A stretch of 47,731 nt of DNA from Escherichia phage JulesPiccard, in sequence record MZ501087; one strand, written 5' to 3'. A model generated the notes under the pieces. That model did no database searches. It was not told the origin of the DNA and saw only the letters and a program-made list of their open reading frames with translations. Numbering within the stretch: position 1 is the stretch's first letter; each line of letters starts with the position of its first letter. Below are positions 5,607 to 47,731 of this stretch, one piece after another. The position numbers were made by a program, and so were the translations under genes.

Positions 5607-5626
5607 GGCCCTTCGGGGCCTTTTTT
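5607..5626 (+). terminator. intrinsic terminator
   Basis: GGCCC-TTCG-GGGCC then TTTTTT. Confidence 0.75.
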
Positions 5627-7236: not shown

Positions 7237-7258
7237 GCCCTCTTCGGAGGGCTTTTTT
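7237..7258 (+). terminator. intrinsic terminator after capsid gene
   Basis: GCCCTC-TTCG-GAGGGC then TTTTTT. Confidence 0.75.
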
Positions 7259-9871: not shown

Positions 9872-9878
9872 AACACAA

Positions 9879-9900
9879 ACCCTCTTCGGAGGGTTTTTTA
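9879..9900 (+). terminator. intrinsic terminator after major tail gene
   Basis: ACCCTC-TTCG-GAGGGT then TTTTTT. Confidence 0.75.
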
Positions 9901-9905
9901 TTGCA

Positions 9906-9948
9906 TAGCATTTTTTGATAAAGCATTAATTTAATCTTCCTGTATAGT
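9906..9948 (+). promoter_or_regulatory. conserved promoter/operator element
   Basis: TAGCATTTTTTGATAAA ... TATAGT ... CATCGAAACGAAATGAG leader. Confidence 0.55.
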
Positions 9949-10584: not shown

Positions 10585-10904
10585 AACGAGCGGTGTATCT
10601 CCAGTACCAGTCAGACCCAACCGATGCCGAGCTGGAAGCTATTGGGATGCGCCGCTCTGATTATGAAGATGAAGAGCCTGAGGTTTTACACTTCGACGAC
10701 AACATGATGAAGGCGTGGGACATTTACTGTTCAATGGCCACGCAATGGAGGGTTGGAGCTAACGGAGCTACAGGGCTAGATTACAACGTGCTAAACTTCC
10801 TCTTTAGAGTGTATAATGTCTCAGAAGAAGAATTGGTGCTCAGCGATTTACGCATCCTTGAAGCTAAGGCTCTTGAGATGATGGATAACCTGAGAAAAAA
10901 ATAA
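10270..10904 (+). CDS. tail assembly chaperone fusion (gpGT-like) via programmed -1 frameshift
   Basis: heptamer A_AAA_AAC at 10575..10581 immediately before G stop; -1 frame stays open to 10904. Confidence 0.55.
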
Positions 10905-10925
10905 CCCGCTTCGGCGGGTTTTCTA
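10904..10925 (+). terminator. terminator/attenuator between GT chaperone and tape measure
   Basis: ACCCGC-TTCG-GCGGGT then TTTCT. Confidence 0.55.
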
Positions 10926-14296: not shown

Positions 14297-14297
14297 A

Positions 14298-14340
14298 TAG
14301 CACTTTTTGCTAAACAGTATTGACATGGATGTCGTATATT
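14298..14340 (+). promoter_or_regulatory. conserved promoter/operator element
   Basis: TAGCACTTTTTGCTAAA, 22 bp, TATATT; leader ACAAAACGAGAGGAGG. Confidence 0.55.
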
Positions 14341-14763: not shown

Positions 14764-14793
14764 TAGGTCAATCGAGAGATTGGCCTTTTTTTA
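14764..14793 (+). terminator. intrinsic terminator after cargo gene
   Basis: imperfect hairpin plus TTTTTTT. Confidence 0.5.
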
Positions 14794-17416: not shown

Positions 17417-17424
17417 ATACCATA

Positions 17425-17446
17425 CCCGCCTAGTGCGGGTTTTTTA
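17425..17446 (+). terminator. intrinsic terminator
   Basis: CCCGC-CTAGT-GCGGG then TTTTTT. Confidence 0.7.
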
Positions 17447-21209: not shown

Positions 21210-21880
21210 TGGCAGATTACGGAGCTATAATTGATGTGAATGGAAACCCATTTATCACACCTGCATCAACTCCATTTTGTCTATATGGAAAATATACCTA
21301 CCAATCATCTGGCAACAGTGCTGCTCACAGCGTTACTCAATACATACCGATTGATTCAAGCTATCCGGTTTGCGCATTCTTGAAAACCAGCAATACTGAG
21401 CAAGGTACGGCGGTGATAGCATATGCAATACGTAGCGGCGCGAATGCTGGAACTCTGTACGTGAATGGAACGAACTATTCAGGCCAATCATTCACTCTAA
21501 CCGTTTATGTTTTCGCTATATTCCCGCAAACCCTTCCGGCTTGGGGTATGGCGATATGGGATGCTAACGGGAAATTGGTTCTTACGAACGAAAGCAGGGT
21601 TCTTAGCGACCTGGAGACAGTACCAGGCTCAGGTTACACACTTGATTATACATATAATGGTAGTTACGCCGTTTCCCCGAGGGCGCTTGGTGCGGTTAAC
21701 GTTTATCAGGTGCAGAACGGACAGCAGATTATAAGGAGCGCAACGGCTGGTGTTTCTTGCAGATTTGATGGTTCACGAACAAGAATAAATGCGGTCCCTC
21801 TTATTAATGGAAGCGCCGCGAGTGGGGGTACTTCAAACGGTGGGCTTGTAACGGCGATCAATACAGCGGCATACGATTAA
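21209..21880 (+). CDS. hypothetical tail-associated protein
   Basis: 223 aa, Gly/Asn/Ser/Thr-rich; followed by bidirectional terminator. Confidence 0.45.
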   Translation: MADYGAIIDVNGNPFITPASTPFCLYGKYTYQSSGNSAAHSVTQYIPIDSSYPVCAFLKTSNTEQGTAVIAYAIRSGANAGTLYVNGTNYSGQSFTLTVYVFAIFPQTLPAWGMAIWDANGKLVLTNESRVLSDLETVPGSGYTLDYTYNGSYAVSPRALGAVNVYQVQNGQQIIRSATAGVSCRFDGSRTRINAVPLINGSAASGGTSNGGLVTAINTAAYD

Positions 21881-21903
21881 GCCCCTTTCGGGGCTTTTCT
21901 TTT
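21880..21903. terminator. bidirectional terminator between convergent genes
   Basis: GCCCC-TTTC-GGGGC flanked by T-run. Confidence 0.65.
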
Positions 21904-25135: not shown

Positions 25136-25164
25136 ATAAAGCCCCTTTCGGGGCTTTTTTTATT
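25136..25164. terminator. bidirectional terminator (SSB / tailspike convergent)
   Basis: AAA-GCCCC-TTTC-GGGGC-TTTTTTT. Confidence 0.75.
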
Positions 25165-42077: not shown

Positions 42078-42377
42078 TTGGCGGTTAGCGAATGCGAATC
42101 GGCACGCGATCGCAAGGTGGCTGTTTGCTATTGCGTTGGTGGCAATGAGTTCATCAATGGTTGCGAATGCGAGTATGAAGTTGATGAGCGCGAGGCGGGG
42201 TGTGAGCCGCGCATTATTCATATCGTACAAGATGCATTCGTCTCTGACTTAAAAGGTGATCACCGCTGGGAATCTGTTAAGTTTGGAAAGCTTAACATTG
42301 ATGGAAAAGATCTTGGCGATGCATACGCAATCATAAATCCTGATGGCGGCGTAGTGGCTCAGTTCTACATCAAATAG
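42078..42377 (+). CDS. Cys-rich hypothetical protein (no ATG; TTG start or readthrough product)
   Basis: open frame from 42039 with no Met; CYC..C.C motifs; stop TAG forms promoter element 42375. Confidence 0.35.
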   Translation: MAVSECESARDRKVAVCYCVGGNEFINGCECEYEVDEREAGCEPRIIHIVQDAFVSDLKGDHRWESVKFGKLNIDGKDLGDAYAIINPDGGVVAQFYIK

Positions 42378-42417
42378 CACGATTTGTTAAAAGGGGATTC
42401 ATCCTGACTGGTATAAT
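42375..42417 (+). promoter_or_regulatory. conserved promoter/operator element
   Basis: TAGCACGATTTGTTAAA-N22-TATAAT. Confidence 0.55.
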
Positions 42418-42450: not shown

Positions 42451-42990
42451 ATGAATCAGATGTACACCATGATTAAGCAACACCTGAACACCGAGGCAAT
42501 CAACAAGCCAGTCTACGTGTTTGACTACGACGGCACGCTGTCGGACGGATCGCATCGCTTGCATAAGTTGCCGACAAAGGATTTACACCTCACTGAGTCA
42601 TGGTCTGAATTCAATCGACTGTCAGAATATGATGAACCTATCGAATCAACCATTCAGGTGATGAATAGCCTGTACGACTCTGGCGCATACATCATCATCC
42701 TAACCGGGCGGTCAGACGAGGTGTGTGAAATTTCGACTCAGTGGCTTCATGATGCTAAAGCAAAATATAACGTAATGGTCATGCGCCAGGCTGATGACAA
42801 CAGAAAGGATACAATCATCAAAGAGGAGTTCTTGCGCTACATTGGCTTGCATCGAATTACGGCAGCATTCGATGATAGCCCTAACGTGGTTGCGCACTTC
42901 CGAAGCCTGGGCATCACTACCTATCAGGTTTGCGACTATGGCGATAAGCTACACGCTGGAGTCGGATCGCATGGCGTTCATCATAAGTGA
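42451..42990 (+). CDS. HAD-family 3'-phosphatase (T4 Pnk phosphatase-domain-like)
   Basis: FDYDGTL (DxDGT), IILTGR, RKDTIIKEEF, AFDDSPNVV collinear with the T4 polynucleotide kinase C-terminal domain as recalled. Confidence 0.65.
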   Translation: MNQMYTMIKQHLNTEAINKPVYVFDYDGTLSDGSHRLHKLPTKDLHLTESWSEFNRLSEYDEPIESTIQVMNSLYDSGAYIIILTGRSDEVCEISTQWLHDAKAKYNVMVMRQADDNRKDTIIKEEFLRYIGLHRITAAFDDSPNVVAHFRSLGITTYQVCDYGDKLHAGVGSHGVHHK

Positions 42991-43110: not shown

Positions 43111-43743
43111 ATGGCTAAAATAATCATTCTTAATGGACCGGCAGGTATTGGAAAGGACACTATCGGAAACGCGCTTGCAGCAGATTACAATTGCAACCTG
43201 GTAAGTTTCAAGCGTCCTATGTTTGATATCGCATCCTCAATACTAGGCGCTTTAGCCTTCAGCAAATTCATCACCGCTTATAATGACCGAGATCAGAAAG
43301 AGCGTCCTCAGGAATTTCTTGGTGGAAAGACATGCCGTGAGTTCATGATCTGGATTAGCGAATCAGTAGTTAAGCCGCTTTTAGGCGATAGGCAGTTCGG
43401 TAAGTTGATGAGCGAACATATCCAGATGCGTGACGAAGGCTTTACGTTTGTTTGCACTGATGGCGGTTTCCCTGATGAGGTTATTCAGCTAGTGGAAGAT
43501 GGACACGATGTTACCCTTGTACGCTTATTTATGGATGGTAAGACATTCGCTGGCGATAGTCGTGATTACATCCGAATCAAGGAATCGCACTTCCCTGATT
43601 ACCATGCCTACCAGGAGCATGATGTTCATCTAGTCAATGGTGATATTTATGGCGGTGTTCTGTCGGTAGCTGATGCTTGCGGTATTGGCTCACCAGTTCC
43701 AGAGGTTGATGTTTACGAGTGGGAAGATGGATTACCCTGGTAA
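43111..43743 (+). CDS. P-loop nucleotide kinase (dNMP-kinase-like)
   Basis: N-terminal IILNGPAGIGKDT P-loop at residue ~7. Confidence 0.5.
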   Translation: MAKIIILNGPAGIGKDTIGNALAADYNCNLVSFKRPMFDIASSILGALAFSKFITAYNDRDQKERPQEFLGGKTCREFMIWISESVVKPLLGDRQFGKLMSEHIQMRDEGFTFVCTDGGFPDEVIQLVEDGHDVTLVRLFMDGKTFAGDSRDYIRIKESHFPDYHAYQEHDVHLVNGDIYGGVLSVADACGIGSPVPEVDVYEWEDGLPW

Positions 43744-45328: not shown

Positions 45329-45526
45329 ATGTGGATCAACATTAAAGAAGAGATGCCTGGCAGCGAGGATGTTTTGGTTTATTGCTCAGACACAAGAGAG
45401 CAGATGGTTGGGTTCCACAAGGGGAGAGGTCTTTTTCAGTTCTTTTTCATGAATGGGGTGGAGGGAGTTTGCAAACCAACGCATTGGATGCCGCTACCAG
45501 AAGGTCCAGATAGCACGAATTGCTAA
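45329..45526 (+). CDS. hypothetical protein
   Basis: RBS AGAGAGAGAAAC; 65 aa. Confidence 0.45.
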   Translation: MWINIKEEMPGSEDVLVYCSDTREQMVGFHKGRGLFQFFFMNGVEGVCKPTHWMPLPEGPDSTNC

Positions 45527-45553
45527 ACACGCTCGCCACGGATGGCATATAAT
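45511..45553 (+). promoter_or_regulatory. conserved promoter/operator element
   Basis: TAGCACGAATTGCTAAAC-N-TATAAT-TACCCCATCAACACAACGAGAG. Confidence 0.55.
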
Positions 45554-45823: not shown

Positions 45824-45923
45824 GTTTATTGATTGTGTTATTTACGCGTGGTGCTTGGCGCTGGCTTCAGCCTCGGTTATGTTAATAATTGCTGCGATTA
45901 TGATGATGGGTGGGTATGTATGA
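45816..45923 (+). CDS. possible 35-aa hydrophobic micro-protein
   Basis: MSKFIDCVIYAWCLALASASVMLIIAAIMMMGGYV; overlaps neighbours by start/stop. Confidence 0.25.
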   Translation: MSKFIDCVIYAWCLALASASVMLIIAAIMMMGGYV

Positions 45924-46108
45924 GTAATTGCAACAAGCACCACTATTACTACGCATACGAGTCGAAATTGGAGAAGTCTGACATTGATGGGATTAGATAT
46001 GGATGGGCTGACGCAACGGCGCCATGCATCTTCGTAGGAATGAAAATGGCATTCTACGTTTGCAGTAAGTGCCACAACATACTTATCACCGAGAGGCTGA
46101 GTAAATGA
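45920..46108 (+). CDS. small zinc-ribbon-like protein (paralog 1)
   Basis: CNKHHY...CSKCHN motif pair. Confidence 0.45.
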   Translation: MSNCNKHHYYYAYESKLEKSDIDGIRYGWADATAPCIFVGMKMAFYVCSKCHNILITERLSK

Positions 46109-46169
46109 GTGAACTAACAATCTGGTTTATCGCAGGGCTGGTTACTTGGGCTTACTTTATGGAGGCAGC

Positions 46170-46406
46170 ATGAGAACATTGAGGCAGATTTTAAACGGAT
46201 GCAAGAAGCATCATTACACTTACTTTCGTGACATTAAATGGTTCGAGGATGCTAATCGTTTAGATGGCTACAAGACAAAGTTAATATGCAAGAAGTGCCA
46301 CCATGTTGAGAACAGTAAGGTAGATATGATGATTTGCCGTAGCACACTCGACGAAGTTCATTATGCAAAGGCCAGAAGGCTCAAAAAACTAGTTGCCAGA
46401 CCGTAA
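46170..46406 (+). CDS. small zinc-ribbon-like protein (paralog 2)
   Basis: CKKHHY...CKKCHH motif pair; RBS GGAGG. Confidence 0.45.
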   Translation: MRTLRQILNGCKKHHYTYFRDIKWFEDANRLDGYKTKLICKKCHHVENSKVDMMICRSTLDEVHYAKARRLKKLVARP

Positions 46407-46448
46407 TTGTTAAAAAGAACTTGCACCACTGACCGGAATTATATAATA
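46401..46448 (+). promoter_or_regulatory. variant promoter element upstream of structured RNA/tRNA region
   Basis: TTGTTAAAA ... TATATAAT ... ACGTAGACAAACGAGG; left half-site degenerate. Confidence 0.35.
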
Positions 46449-46454
46449 TTAACC

Positions 46455-46810
46455 ACGTAGACAAACGAGGCCACTAAGTGGCAACGGCGCACGGAGCGCA
46501 CTACGCGGTAAGTCCGCTGCTCATTAAGTAGCGTATGCGGCGCATCTGGTCCATGAGGATAAGGCGTAAACCTCAACCAACTTCCCAGTATGGGCTTTAT
46601 TCCCTTAGGGACTTGAAGACCTAGCGCAAATAGGCCGACATGGTCCAAGTCGAAAAAACTGACCAGACCTGAGCACGTCATTAAAAGAGCTTTCTGTTAA
46701 TCGGTCGTTTCAGGCGACCCCGGAGCCGTAACCGGGATTTATATGGGTGGCATTTATGTCATCTTGTAAATTGGTCGTAAAGGCGACCCCGGAATCATAA
46801 CCGGGACTCA
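46455..46810 (+). ncRNA. candidate structured non-coding RNA region upstream of tRNA
   Basis: non-coding GC-rich stretch with multiple local hairpins and two ~40-nt direct repeats (46693..46735, 46763..46805: GGTCG-loop-CGACC plus CCCGG-loop-CCGGG); variant promoter upstream. Confidence 0.3.
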
Positions 46811-46816
46811 TTCAAA

Positions 46817-46894
46817 GCTCTGCTAGCTCAATTGGATAGCAGCAACGACCTTCTAAGTCGTAGGTTACTGGTTCGAATCCAGTGCGGAGCGCCA
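46817..46894 (+). tRNA. tRNA-Arg (anticodon UCU), CCA encoded
   Basis: 7-bp acceptor stem GCTCTGC/GCGGAGC (one G-U), anticodon stem ACGAC/GTCGT with loop CTTCTAA, T-arm ACTGG-TTCGAAT-CCAGT, D-loop with GG, 3' GCCA; D-stem has only 3 pairs. Confidence 0.75.
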
Positions 46895-46921
46895 AATTAA
46901 ACCAATAATCCTGGGGGATTT

Positions 46922-47104
46922 ATGAAAACTGTAACATTCATCGTAAAAGATTCAGGGACGGGAACCGTTCAGAAGTTTAACGCGAAATTAACCTACAACA
47001 AAGGTGGAAGTAAAGAAGTTAGAGGCTCACTGGGCGGCGTGATGGTTGAGGCTCGACTCCCGATTATCTACCCTGATGACGAGCGCCGCAATGTGGGACG
47101 TTAA
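46922..47104 (+). CDS. hypothetical protein
   Basis: 60-aa ORF after tRNA, RBS GGGGGATTTATG weak. Confidence 0.35.
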   Translation: MKTVTFIVKDSGTGTVQKFNAKLTYNKGGSKEVRGSLGGVMVEARLPIIYPDDERRNVGR

Positions 47105-47120
47105 ACTTTCAATCAGACTA

Positions 47121-47273
47121 ATGGGCCGAAGTTGCAAGAATTGCACTCAAGATTATATCGCGTCAGTTGCCGCAATCAGCGCTGAGGATGCGGTAGCGAA
47201 AGTAAAAGAGTTGTCAGGCGCTGATCCAGACACTCACAAATTCCTGGTAGCTTACGTTCGTGAGCGAAAGTAA
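47121..47273 (+). CDS. hypothetical protein (50 aa)
   Basis: in-frame ATG of tracked ORF 47046..47273 not overlapping upstream gene; terminator follows. Confidence 0.3.
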   Translation: MGRSCKNCTQDYIASVAAISAEDAVAKVKELSGADPDTHKFLVAYVRERK

Positions 47274-47317
47274 AAAGTGTTATACCCTCGTTAAGTTCCG
47301 TTTCTCTCGTTGTTTTT

Positions 47318-47342
47318 AGCCCTCGCTTGAGGGCTTTTTTTC
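47318..47342 (+). terminator. intrinsic terminator
   Basis: AGCCCTC-GCTTG-AGGGCT then TTTTTT. Confidence 0.7.
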
Positions 47343-47664: not shown

Positions 47665-47687
47665 GCCCCTTAATTGGGGCTTTTTTA
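47665..47687 (+). terminator. intrinsic terminator
   Basis: GCCCC-TTAATT-GGGGC then TTTTTT. Confidence 0.75.
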
Positions 47688-47731
47688 CGCCTGTAACATG
47701 GTATAATATAACATCAACAAAGGAGGATTAA

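Follow-up and report, generated by a model that had tools for sequence, protein, structure and literature searches.

In the genome of Escherichia phage JulesPiccard (sequence record MZ501087), a tRNA-Arg(UCU) gene is preceded by a structured, non-coding interval of about 360 nucleotides (nt). Homology and structure together make it highly probable that this interval is the Braunvirinae version of a structured 5′ leader RNA of the whole family Drexlerviridae. The tandem hairpins beside the tRNA, which an earlier reading of the sequence (the original prediction) had singled out, are the tail of this larger, family-wide RNA, and the tRNA-Arg of Rtp-like phages is a secondary insertion into the pre-existing leader. 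On balance, we favor an account in which a working tRNA accompanies a conserved, protein-binding, cis-regulatory leader. Positions refer to the window, that is, the whole stretch of 47,731 nt that was analyzed (Table 1).

T1 is a classic coliphage, and its relatives are abundant in phage collections, among phage-therapy candidates and as laboratory contaminants. Late-gene control in the T1 family is poorly understood, and these phages are not known to encode an RNA polymerase, a sigma factor or an antiterminator of their own. An RNA that has covariation support and stands at the head of the packaging operon in all sampled subfamilies offers a concrete, easily mutated handle on this control. 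It also corrects the annotation of the leader region, which in most records is blank or carries spurious open reading frames (ORFs). Should the leader be only a stabilizing 5′ untranslated region (UTR), it would be a modest addition to the catalogue of RNA motifs.

The Drexlerviridae leader RNA

Homology was assessed with a covariance model, R1, built from 22 leaders, none of which belongs to the Braunvirinae. Against both strands of the whole window, R1 gave only one real match in 47.7 kb, at 46454-46504 (31.3 bits; E=1.9e-7, a rough value owing to shortened model calibration). Over 77 sources (262 kb), 68 loci had exactly one match each, and every match ran in the same direction as the genes downstream (+). 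Pairing is nearly complete in the alignment of R1 itself, where 98.9% of cells are paired, compared with 20-51% in slid controls, and seven of nine pairs are compensatory. In an alignment of 52 distinct sequences, which was fitted to R1 and is hence biased towards structure, the figure is 99.5%, and slid controls of both alignments span 19-54%. Family-wide, compensatory changes affect three of the four modelled pairs of the first hairpin (H1) and four of five in the second (H2). The leader helices tolerate G-U and U-G pairs and lack A-C pairs, a pattern that points to an RNA of the + strand rather than a DNA element.

Beyond the Braunvirinae, the regions upstream of the homologue of orfB, a small gene of the downstream operon, were taken from six records of other lineages and 42 IMG/VR contigs, giving 48 loci. 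The same promoter and leader occur in Tunavirus (T1-like), Tlsvirus, Warwickvirus, Nouzillyvirus and Webervirus-like phages. In all 48 loci, a GUrrACAnAmGAG strand comes first, then two hairpins separated by AAC, then one or two variable hairpins and, last, a terminal hairpin with YGUAA. The terminal-loop versions ending in YGUAA read AACCGUAA, AGCCGUAA, AGACCCGUAA and ACUCCGUAA, and the terminal stem covaries around this constant motif (GCGGG/CCCGC, GUGGG/CCCAC, GCCGC/GCGGC, CCCGG/CCGGG and GCUGG/CCAGC). Beyond the terminal hairpin, the sequence continues with ..AUUCAGGAG and the start codon of a small ORF. Comparison by eye recovered the YGUAA loop followed by ..AUUCA, and the hairpins of two TLS-like loci (L052 and L088) read CGGG-AGCCGUAA-CCCG. 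Gene order is likewise constant in every sampled subfamily, with promoter and leader followed by two or three small ORFs and by the terminase and morphogenesis genes.

The surroundings of the terminal hairpin differ among lineages. In Webervirus-like phages and Warwickvirus, it has a GC-rich stem of 7-9 bp followed by four to eight U's and lies directly before the ribosome-binding site. Such terminator-like hairpins with U4-8 (loci L054, L067-L075, L082 and L083) make up about a third of lineages; the terminator scanner is blind to these leader hairpins, which have loops of >8 nt, and the terminator-type call comes from sequence reading and RNAfold. In T1-like and TLS-like phages, the ribosome-binding site follows within 10-15 nt of the terminal hairpin, without a terminator.

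None of the 4227 models of Rfam 15 matched the window leader, even at permissive E-values, or the inside of the leaders of six other subfamily representatives, and the literature searched held no description of the leader RNA. Scans of IMG/VR and metagenomes returned only more Drexlerviridae plus chance matches. Among phage 5′ leaders and non-coding RNAs, which are a familiar general class, the leader therefore stands as a new RNA family, one whose secondary association with a tRNA is unusual. Two other identities were rejected. For RNase P RNA (strings GGUAAGUCCG and CUGACCAGAC), global alignment scored 166.5 against 164.9 +/- 8.2 for shuffled sequence, with no Rfam match; for a host-derived fragment, blastn found no match in 5,426 E. 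coli genomes.

Within the Braunvirinae, 20 loci, later joined by 12 true metagenomic loci, were aligned. The interval from promoter to tRNA comprises an invariant 5′ domain of ~85 nt, a modular middle whose hairpins are gained or lost as whole blocks among relatives, and an invariant 3′ module, in which two abutting hairpins lead up to the tRNA. RNAalifold folds 27 distinct 5′ domains into three hairpins. Four of the five H1 pairs are compensatory (GCCAC/GUGGC, CCAUC/GAUGG, CUAGC/GCUAG); H2 is invariant, its loop ACGGA included; and H3 shows one compensatory pair (GC to AU, three sequences) and one one-sided change around an invariant inner stem. In the 3′ module (H4/H5), 99.2% of cells are paired (slid controls 17-48%) and four of nine pairs are compensatory, with double changes from GUCG/CGAC to GCUG/CAGC and from CCCGG/CCGGG to GCUGG/CCAGC.

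The original prediction had described the upstream region as non-coding, GC-rich and structured, with a tandem two-hairpin repeat. The repeat was recovered at 46703-46737 and 46773-46806, with 29 of 35 positions identical (83%, one gap) and starts 69 nt apart. The non-coding character also holds, as no ORF is conserved and relatives differ by indels of whole hairpin modules. The GC content is only modestly raised (50.6% vs 44.7% in the genome). The structure is borne out by covariation, but the region folds only moderately better than shuffled sequence (z = -2.5); the support for the leader structure is thus covariation, not folding energy. The conserved core lies at the 5′ end (46457-46540), beyond the tRNA-adjacent repeats, which makes the element much wider than first described.

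The second copy of the repeat belongs to a 69-nt module that is also present, in identical form, in phage A110b (L010) and in a metagenome locus (L040), where the first copies have the other stem type (GGCUG/CAGCC). It is absent in AugustePiccard, Rtp and the remaining relatives. Its occurrence in two other lineages indicates a shared module rather than a private recent duplication. Its loop has lost the conserved AGCCGUAA and reads AAUCAUAA instead. The window has CGUAA at 46566-46570 (M1 loop), 46727-46731 (H5 loop) and 46776-46780 (H4′). The density of CGTAA is 9.4 per kb in leaders vs 1.3 per kb in the genome, a count made over related sequences that are not independent.

Table 1. Features of the leader, the tRNA and their surroundings in the window
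Feature	Position	Strand	Description or basis
Promoter region	46407-46449	+	A-rich upstream stretch TTGTTAAAAAG, -35, 17-nt spacer with CTGACCGG, -10
Non-coding structured region	~46457-46816	+	~360 nt
5′ single strand GUAGACAAACGAG	46457-46469	+	Family consensus GUrrACAnAmGAG; R1 model positions 1-16 align here
Hairpin H1, GCCAC-UAA-GUGGC	46470-46482	+	Compensatory changes
AAC linker, G, hairpin H2, GCGC-ACGGA-GCGC	46483-46499	+	Inside R1 match 46454-46504
Hairpin H3, Braunvirinae-specific	46514-46540	+	CCGC/GCGG outer stem around conserved UGCUCAUUAAGUAGCG; RNAalifold
Variable middle region	46545-46702	+	Hairpin modules M1-M5
M1, GAGG-AUAAGGCGUAAA-CCUC	46555-46574	+	Minimum-free-energy fold
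M2	46584-46594	+	Minimum-free-energy fold
M3	46601-46611	+	Minimum-free-energy fold
M4, CCUA-GCGCAAA-UAGG	46620-46634	+	Minimum-free-energy fold; in most Braunvirinae
M5	46636-46652	+	Minimum-free-energy fold
Canonical 3′ module	46700-46736	+	AAUCGG, H4, abutting H5; covariation
H4, GUCG/CGAC	46704-46707/46715-46718	+	Part of 3′ module
H5, CCCGG-AGCCGUAA-CCGGG	46719-46736	+	Family-wide YGUAA loop; loop motif kept in other subfamilies
69-nt extra module	46737-46805	+	Direct repeat of terminal module
Spacer hairpin of 69-nt module	~46738-46772	+	
H4′ and H5′ of 69-nt module	46774-46787, 46788-46805	+	Degenerate loops UAAAGG and AAUCAUAA
Spacer ACUCAUUCAAA	46806-46816	+	Remnant of the pre-ribosome-binding-site sequence in tRNA-less relatives (…CAUUCAGGAG)
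tRNA-Arg(UCU), argU-like, encoded CCA	46817-46894	+	ARAGORN, Rfam RF00005
Downstream part of transcription unit	46922-47341	+	orfA, orfB, intrinsic terminator
orfA	46922-47104	+	phrog_16862
orfB	47088-47273	+	phrog_2919, 61 aa
Intrinsic terminator after orfB	47318-47341	+	Between tRNA and terS
Structural-gene terminators	2647-2664, 5607-5620, 7237-7252, 9877-9896, 10903-10920, 14765-14786, 17424-17440, 21879-21896, 25138-25157	Coding strand	
19-nt repeat, example sites	2174-2192, 9905-9923, 14297-14315, 42374-42392, 45510-45528		

Several further structural likenesses were tried and rejected. A putative kissing contact of loop H2 (ACGG) with loop H5 (CCGU) would involve 3-4 bp and is uncompensated in TR2-like or DTL variants. 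Nor do the two ends of the leader pair into a closing helix in any way that is consistent across subfamilies. The partial GUAGCG match to the RfaH ops element falls in the covarying H2 stem, the sequence of which is not conserved, and likeness to the 11-nt tetraloop-receptor motif is confined to terminator-type hairpins. Type III antitoxin arrays consist of tandem near-identical repeats of 34-40 nt, with an endoRNase toxin adjoining or targeted. A ToxI or pseudo-ToxI array does not agree with two copies that are 83% identical and 69 nt apart, with the single copy of most relatives or with the lack of a toxin gene nearby.

The original prediction had also proposed that a variant promoter drives the whole region as one transcript. 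A sigma70 promoter can be read from the sequence at 46421-46449, with the -35 hexamer TTGCAC (46421-46426), a 17-nt spacer and the -10 hexamer TAATAT (46444-46449). The consensus scanner missed it because the -35 hexamer matches at only 4/6 positions. This one promoter plausibly drives leader and tRNA as a single transcript, since no convincing terminator lies between them. The promoter is kept in 20 Braunvirinae loci, and TTGAC-N17-TAnnnT promoters stand ahead of the leader in all other subfamilies sampled; that of locus L056, which has an extended -10, was recognized by the scanner. In every subfamily, exactly 7 nt separate the -10 element from the leader, and we infer a transcription start at 46456/46457, 7-8 nt past the -10. 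The spacer of the leader promoter contains a CTGAnnGG motif (46429-46436 in the window) in every subfamily, including loci L051-L056 and L064-L105, at distances to the -35 and -10 that vary among subfamilies. The motif may be an operator for a regulator.

The tRNA-Arg and its point of insertion

The tRNA had been predicted with a UCU anticodon, an encoded CCA and a short D-stem, and all of these features were confirmed. ARAGORN calls tRNA-Arg(tct) at the predicted place, and Rfam RF00005 scores it at 57.4 bits against a gathering score of 29 (E=7e-10). The CCA is encoded in the DNA at 46892-46894, and the D-stem has three Watson-Crick pairs and a single C.C mismatch at 13-22. In an alignment with E. 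coli argU, 62 of 78 positions agree; the two anticodon arms are the same, and the D arms nearly so. The established arginine identity elements A20 and C35 are both present, in the D-loop ..UUGGAUA.. and the anticodon loop CUUCUAA, respectively. This is an already known, ordinary and working tRNA, annotated as tRNA-Arg in relatives; the leader-adjacent tRNA of the Braunvirinae has either a UCU or a CCU anticodon.

The suggestion that codon usage could make the tRNA adaptive fits the codon counts. Across 29 long ORFs, AGA accounts for 20.9% and AGG for 15.2% of arginine codons, or 36% together. By established codon tables, the shares in E. coli K-12 are roughly 4% for AGA and roughly 2% for AGG, so that the use of these codons in the phage is ~6 times that of its host. 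Codon compensation is a sufficient explanation for the tRNA, and the identity of its anticodon loop with that of the host gives no sign of anticodon-nuclease evasion. In its cloverleaf, UCU anticodon, A20 and C35, argU-identical anticodon arm and AGA/AGG-rich phage context, it resembles E. coli argU and the codon-compensating tRNAs of phages T4 and T5. Unlike the T4 and T5 tRNAs, it is single rather than part of a cluster, and unlike these and argU, it is flanked by a conserved leader RNA on one side and by the opening ORF of an operon on the other.

The distribution of the tRNA sets it apart from the leader. ARAGORN found no tRNA in 47 of the 48 non-Braunvirinae leader loci (six of six records, 41 of 42 contigs). 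The exception, the Nouzillyvirus-like contig L064, has a leader like that of phage P818 followed by a tRNA-Arg, and P818 itself lacks the tRNA. This pair marks the tRNA as a presence/absence insertion at one fixed point. The insertion lies between ..CAUUCA after the terminal hairpin and the first ribosome-binding site, and it is secondary to a pre-existing leader.

The same distribution bears on the idea, raised in the original prediction, that the upstream hairpin pairs are remnants of decayed tRNA genes in a tRNA precursor. Stems of 4-5 bp, loops of 7-8 nt, the adjoining tRNA and the two occurrences of the pair would suit such remnants, as would the 8-mer CGGAGCGC that H2 and the 3′ acceptor strand of the tRNA have in common, but the idea is scarcely credible. 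RF00005 finds nothing else in 46300-47000 at E<=10, and the same hairpins occupy the same place in 47 tRNA-less relatives; they predate the tRNA and occur without it. The conserved loop AGCCGUAA is neither a T-loop nor an anticodon loop, UUUCAGG is equally unlike both, and TR2-like phages have an extended stem in place of the first loop. The common 8-mer, moreover, does not vary with the tRNA acceptor variants of relatives.

This 8-mer lies at 46492-46499 (H2 loop and 3′ strand) and at 46883-46890 (tRNA 3′ acceptor strand), and the corresponding string of phages MM01 and IME542 is a 10-mer, CACGGAGCGC. The sharing is probably due to chance, because it does not covary with tRNA variants. A pairing of H2 with tRNA acceptor strands via CGGAGCGC was rejected, as nothing covaries with the tRNA variants of T145P1, BEK3 and the TR2 group. 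A pairing of H4 with the tRNA anticodon stem (GGUCG/CGACC) fared no better: GGCUG-type phages keep the same tRNA, and nothing covaries.

Proposed function and alternatives

As for the regulatory mechanism, a protein-binding cis-regulatory leader is proposed, tentatively, as the most likely function. Host RNA polymerase would transcribe the leader, which would act mainly in cis on the operon behind it. A putative protein would bind conserved loops or single strands (YGUAA) and set either how far transcription reads through or how the first ORF is translated. A role in cis is suggested by where the leader invariably sits, just behind a strong host-type promoter and heading the orfA-orfB-terS-terL block. 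Conservation falls on unpaired sequence (the YGUAA and H2 loops, the AAC linker, the 5′ strand and the AAUCGG that comes ahead of the penultimate hairpin), and the stems drift, a combination typical of protein-recognized RNAs or of folds with tertiary contacts. In Webervirus-like phages and Warwickvirus, the U-tract hairpin before the ribosome-binding site looks like an attenuator. The lack of a U-tract in T1-like, TLS-like and Rtp-like phages makes hairpin and loop, not termination, the common denominator. An intrinsic-terminator attenuator or riboswitch was rejected for the window, where H5 and H5′ lack a proper U-tract and only a weak AUUUAUAU follows H5. In the Braunvirinae, the tRNA would be co-transcribed with the leader. 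A tRNA in a transcript makes RNase P cleavage unavoidable, here at 46816/46817, and the cut would release the leader as a free RNA of ~360 nt. The leader would then also have to exist as free RNA, which keeps a trans-acting role open.

The nearest formal counterparts of such a leader are the T4 gene 43 operator hairpin (5-bp stem, 8-nt loop, beside the ribosome-binding site) and ribosomal-protein leaders. The terminal hairpin also has a 5-bp stem and a conserved 8-nt loop, and in tRNA-less relatives it lies 10-15 nt upstream of the Shine-Dalgarno sequence. The Drexlerviridae leader differs in being much larger, with 5 to 12 hairpins, in the tRNA that parts hairpin and ORF in the window, and in having a protein partner that is only putative.

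Several points weigh against the cis-regulatory proposal. The start site, the co-transcription of the tRNA and the release by RNase P are all inferred. The E-values of R1 are rough, and the CGTAA counts share the dependence noted above. No U-tract follows the terminal hairpin in the window or in T1-like and TLS-like leaders; thus, attenuation cannot explain the leader across the family. The leaders showed no conserved pairing of an alternative, antiterminator kind; the one candidate among terminator-type leaders, in L069 only, is not conserved. Finally, tRNA processing in the Braunvirinae would sever the leader from the mRNA, which argues against a purely translational operator there and weighs somewhat against mechanisms that need tethered RNA.

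A somewhat unlikely alternative is that the free form does the real job and the leader is a trans-acting stable RNA, either a small RNA or a protein sponge. Its 3′ end would be made by an intrinsic terminator in Webervirus-like phages, by RNase P at the tRNA in the Braunvirinae and by RNase E elsewhere; its YGUAA loops would titrate an RNA-binding protein of the host or the phage, or its 5′ single strand would pair with a target mRNA. Terminator-type hairpins would indeed yield discrete RNAs of ~100-120 nt, a tRNA directly behind the terminal hairpin would provide a precise RNase P-made 3′ end, and the leader is kept in the Braunvirinae although processing would part it from the mRNA. In the window, loops M1, H5 and H4′ all contain YGUAA, as do H1 or H2 loops of some relatives, and hairpin modules are gained and the terminal module duplicated, as in sponge RNAs. 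However, motif copies number only 1-4 per RNA, and the 5′ strand mixes conserved and variable positions (GUrrACAnAmGAG), unlike a continuous seed for a fixed host target. The T1-like and TLS-like leader, with a ribosome-binding site 10-15 nt on and no terminator, resembles an ordinary 5′ UTR. An end set by RNase P at a tRNA of the same transcript would be shared with the T4 stable RNAs C and D (tRNA cluster), the E. coli 3′ETS-leuZ sponge and MALAT1-mascRNA, none of which has any sequence relationship to the leader; in contrast to these, the leader lacks any tRNA in most of the family, which makes the tRNA link secondary. It is rather unlikely that the leader controls the timing of the packaging and morphogenesis genes family-wide, whether by acting on host RNA polymerase in a put-like manner or by capturing a protein via YGUAA, with RNase P also freeing it in the Braunvirinae.

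Processive antitermination, in which the nascent leader would modify its own RNA polymerase to pass the packaging and morphogenesis terminators, is distinctly improbable. HK022 put (RNA alone) and lambda nut (RNA with a phage protein and Nus factors) are the models. The former consists of two stem-loops with one unpaired base between them, occurs as left and right copies past the early promoters and acts on the beta′ zinc-binding domain. The position of the leader, just past a strong promoter at the head of the structural-gene block, suits such an element, as do the terminators ahead: two between tRNA and terS, and at least nine strong ones on the coding strand within 1-25 kb. In phage TLS, only three sigma70 promoters but 21 terminators have been predicted (PMC11447400), and this imbalance also speaks for antitermination, as does the terminator directly behind the leader in some lineages, placed like tR′ behind PR′ in lambda. 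Broader likenesses to the lambda PR′-tR′ leader (‘6S’) with Q, to put and to nut include the constitutive-looking sigma70 promoter and short non-coding leader heading late or packaging genes, the many downstream terminators and the conserved sequence in the promoter spacer and first transcribed bases. Yet the leader has no sequence or model similarity to 6S or nut, and no Q-like or N-like gene was found among 16 early-region ORFs. There is one leader copy per genome, compared with left and right copies of put and nut; the gap between H1 and H2 is 4-6 nt, compared with one unpaired base in put; and, unlike in lambda 6S RNA, the RNA structure itself is under selection. Moreover, the ~20 copies of a promoter-associated repeat in the structural block may make read-through unneeded, and tRNA processing would sever the tether between leader and polymerase. 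A boxA-like 13-mer in H3 was counted in favor of antitermination, but it is confined to the Braunvirinae and varies at key positions.

This 13-mer, the H3 loop region UGCUCAUUAAGUA (46518-46530), agrees at 10/13 positions with the rrn boxA consensus UGCUCUUUAACAA. The string varies among Braunvirinae (GCUAAUUAA, GUUCAUUAA, GCUCACUAA) and is absent in other subfamilies. A lambda nut site or rrn leader, in which boxA GCUCUUUA adjoins a boxB hairpin and is kept among relatives, was rejected, as the 10/13 string occurs in Braunvirinae H3 only.

It is very improbable that the element works as DNA, be it as an operator array, a pac site, a replication origin or a signal for single-strand initiation. 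It does lie near terS, close to the usual place of pac sites in headful-packaging phages; H2 is palindromic and GC-rich; and CTGAnnGG is conserved inside the promoter spacer. Nevertheless, stem sequences change freely while pairing is kept (at least five versions of each stem), the tolerance of G-U and absence of A-C fit a + strand RNA, a promoter stands immediately upstream in every case, with the element oriented so as to be transcribed from it, and GC skew shows no origin signal.

Genome setting and database records

The region 46380-46900 best matches Escherichia phage AugustePiccard (Bas01), with 95% coverage and 94% identity, followed by Rtp and other Braunvirinae, and the window is a complete Rtp-like coliphage genome (Drexlerviridae, Braunvirinae). 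It opens with the small terminase gene terS (1-507) and ends ~840 nt past the tRNA, which places the leader just upstream of the packaging genes, across the record ends. Two terminators (47318-47341 and ~47666-47690) lie between the tRNA and terS. The orfB family stands directly behind the leader unit in all relatives examined, and orfB (phrog_2919) is conserved in 779 phage records spanning the whole Drexlerviridae. Its product has an MGRxCxxC motif and a weak match to heavy-metal-associated (copper-ATPase N-terminal) domains (E ~1e-3).

The structural genes are interspersed with at least nine strong canonical intrinsic terminators on the coding strand. Some of these are only a few bases before the next gene, so that substantial read-through or re-initiation must occur. 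The window also contains 20 copies of a 19-nt repeat, ATAGCACnnnTTGnTAAAA, mostly on the + strand, against 2.4 expected by chance. A 21-nt direct repeat has been reported for phage TLS (PMC11447400), and the 19-nt repeat is the same element. It probably marks phage-specific promoters or enhancers; the leader promoter region holds only its 3′ half (46407-46417).

Two paralogous small ORFs (45833-46108 and 46146-46406) with zinc-ribbon-like CxKHH...CxKCH motifs immediately precede the leader promoter. Homologues are labelled ‘transcriptional repressor’ in TR2 and IMM-001, on a basis that is not visible. Of two neighboring ORFs at 42451-42990 and 43111-43743, one has a polynucleotide kinase-phosphatase (PNKP) phosphatase domain (PF25109, 1.9e-19; phrog_415) and the other is P-loop kinase-like (phrog_139). 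PNKP-type RNA/DNA end-healing enzymes are used by T4 to repair cleaved tRNA; no RNA ligase was seen alongside these two ORFs of the window.

The leader and tRNA region is systematically mis-annotated across database records. Coding sequences named ‘30S ribosomal protein S4’, ‘hypothetical protein’ or ‘transcriptional repressor’ are placed over the leader or the tRNA in IMM-001 (MF630922, L022), TR2 (L014), DTL (L015) and L009, and the tRNA is missing from the annotation of Rtp, FP, DTL, IME253 and BEK3. Two records with other stated hosts, MG065688 ‘Campylobacter phage A110b’ (L010, UNVERIFIED) and PP134917 ‘Pseudomonas phage PsgS01F’, are Rtp-like coliphage genomes that, over the leader and tRNA region, are ~90% identical to E. 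coli phages; their stated hosts look doubtful, and contamination or carry-over may account for them.

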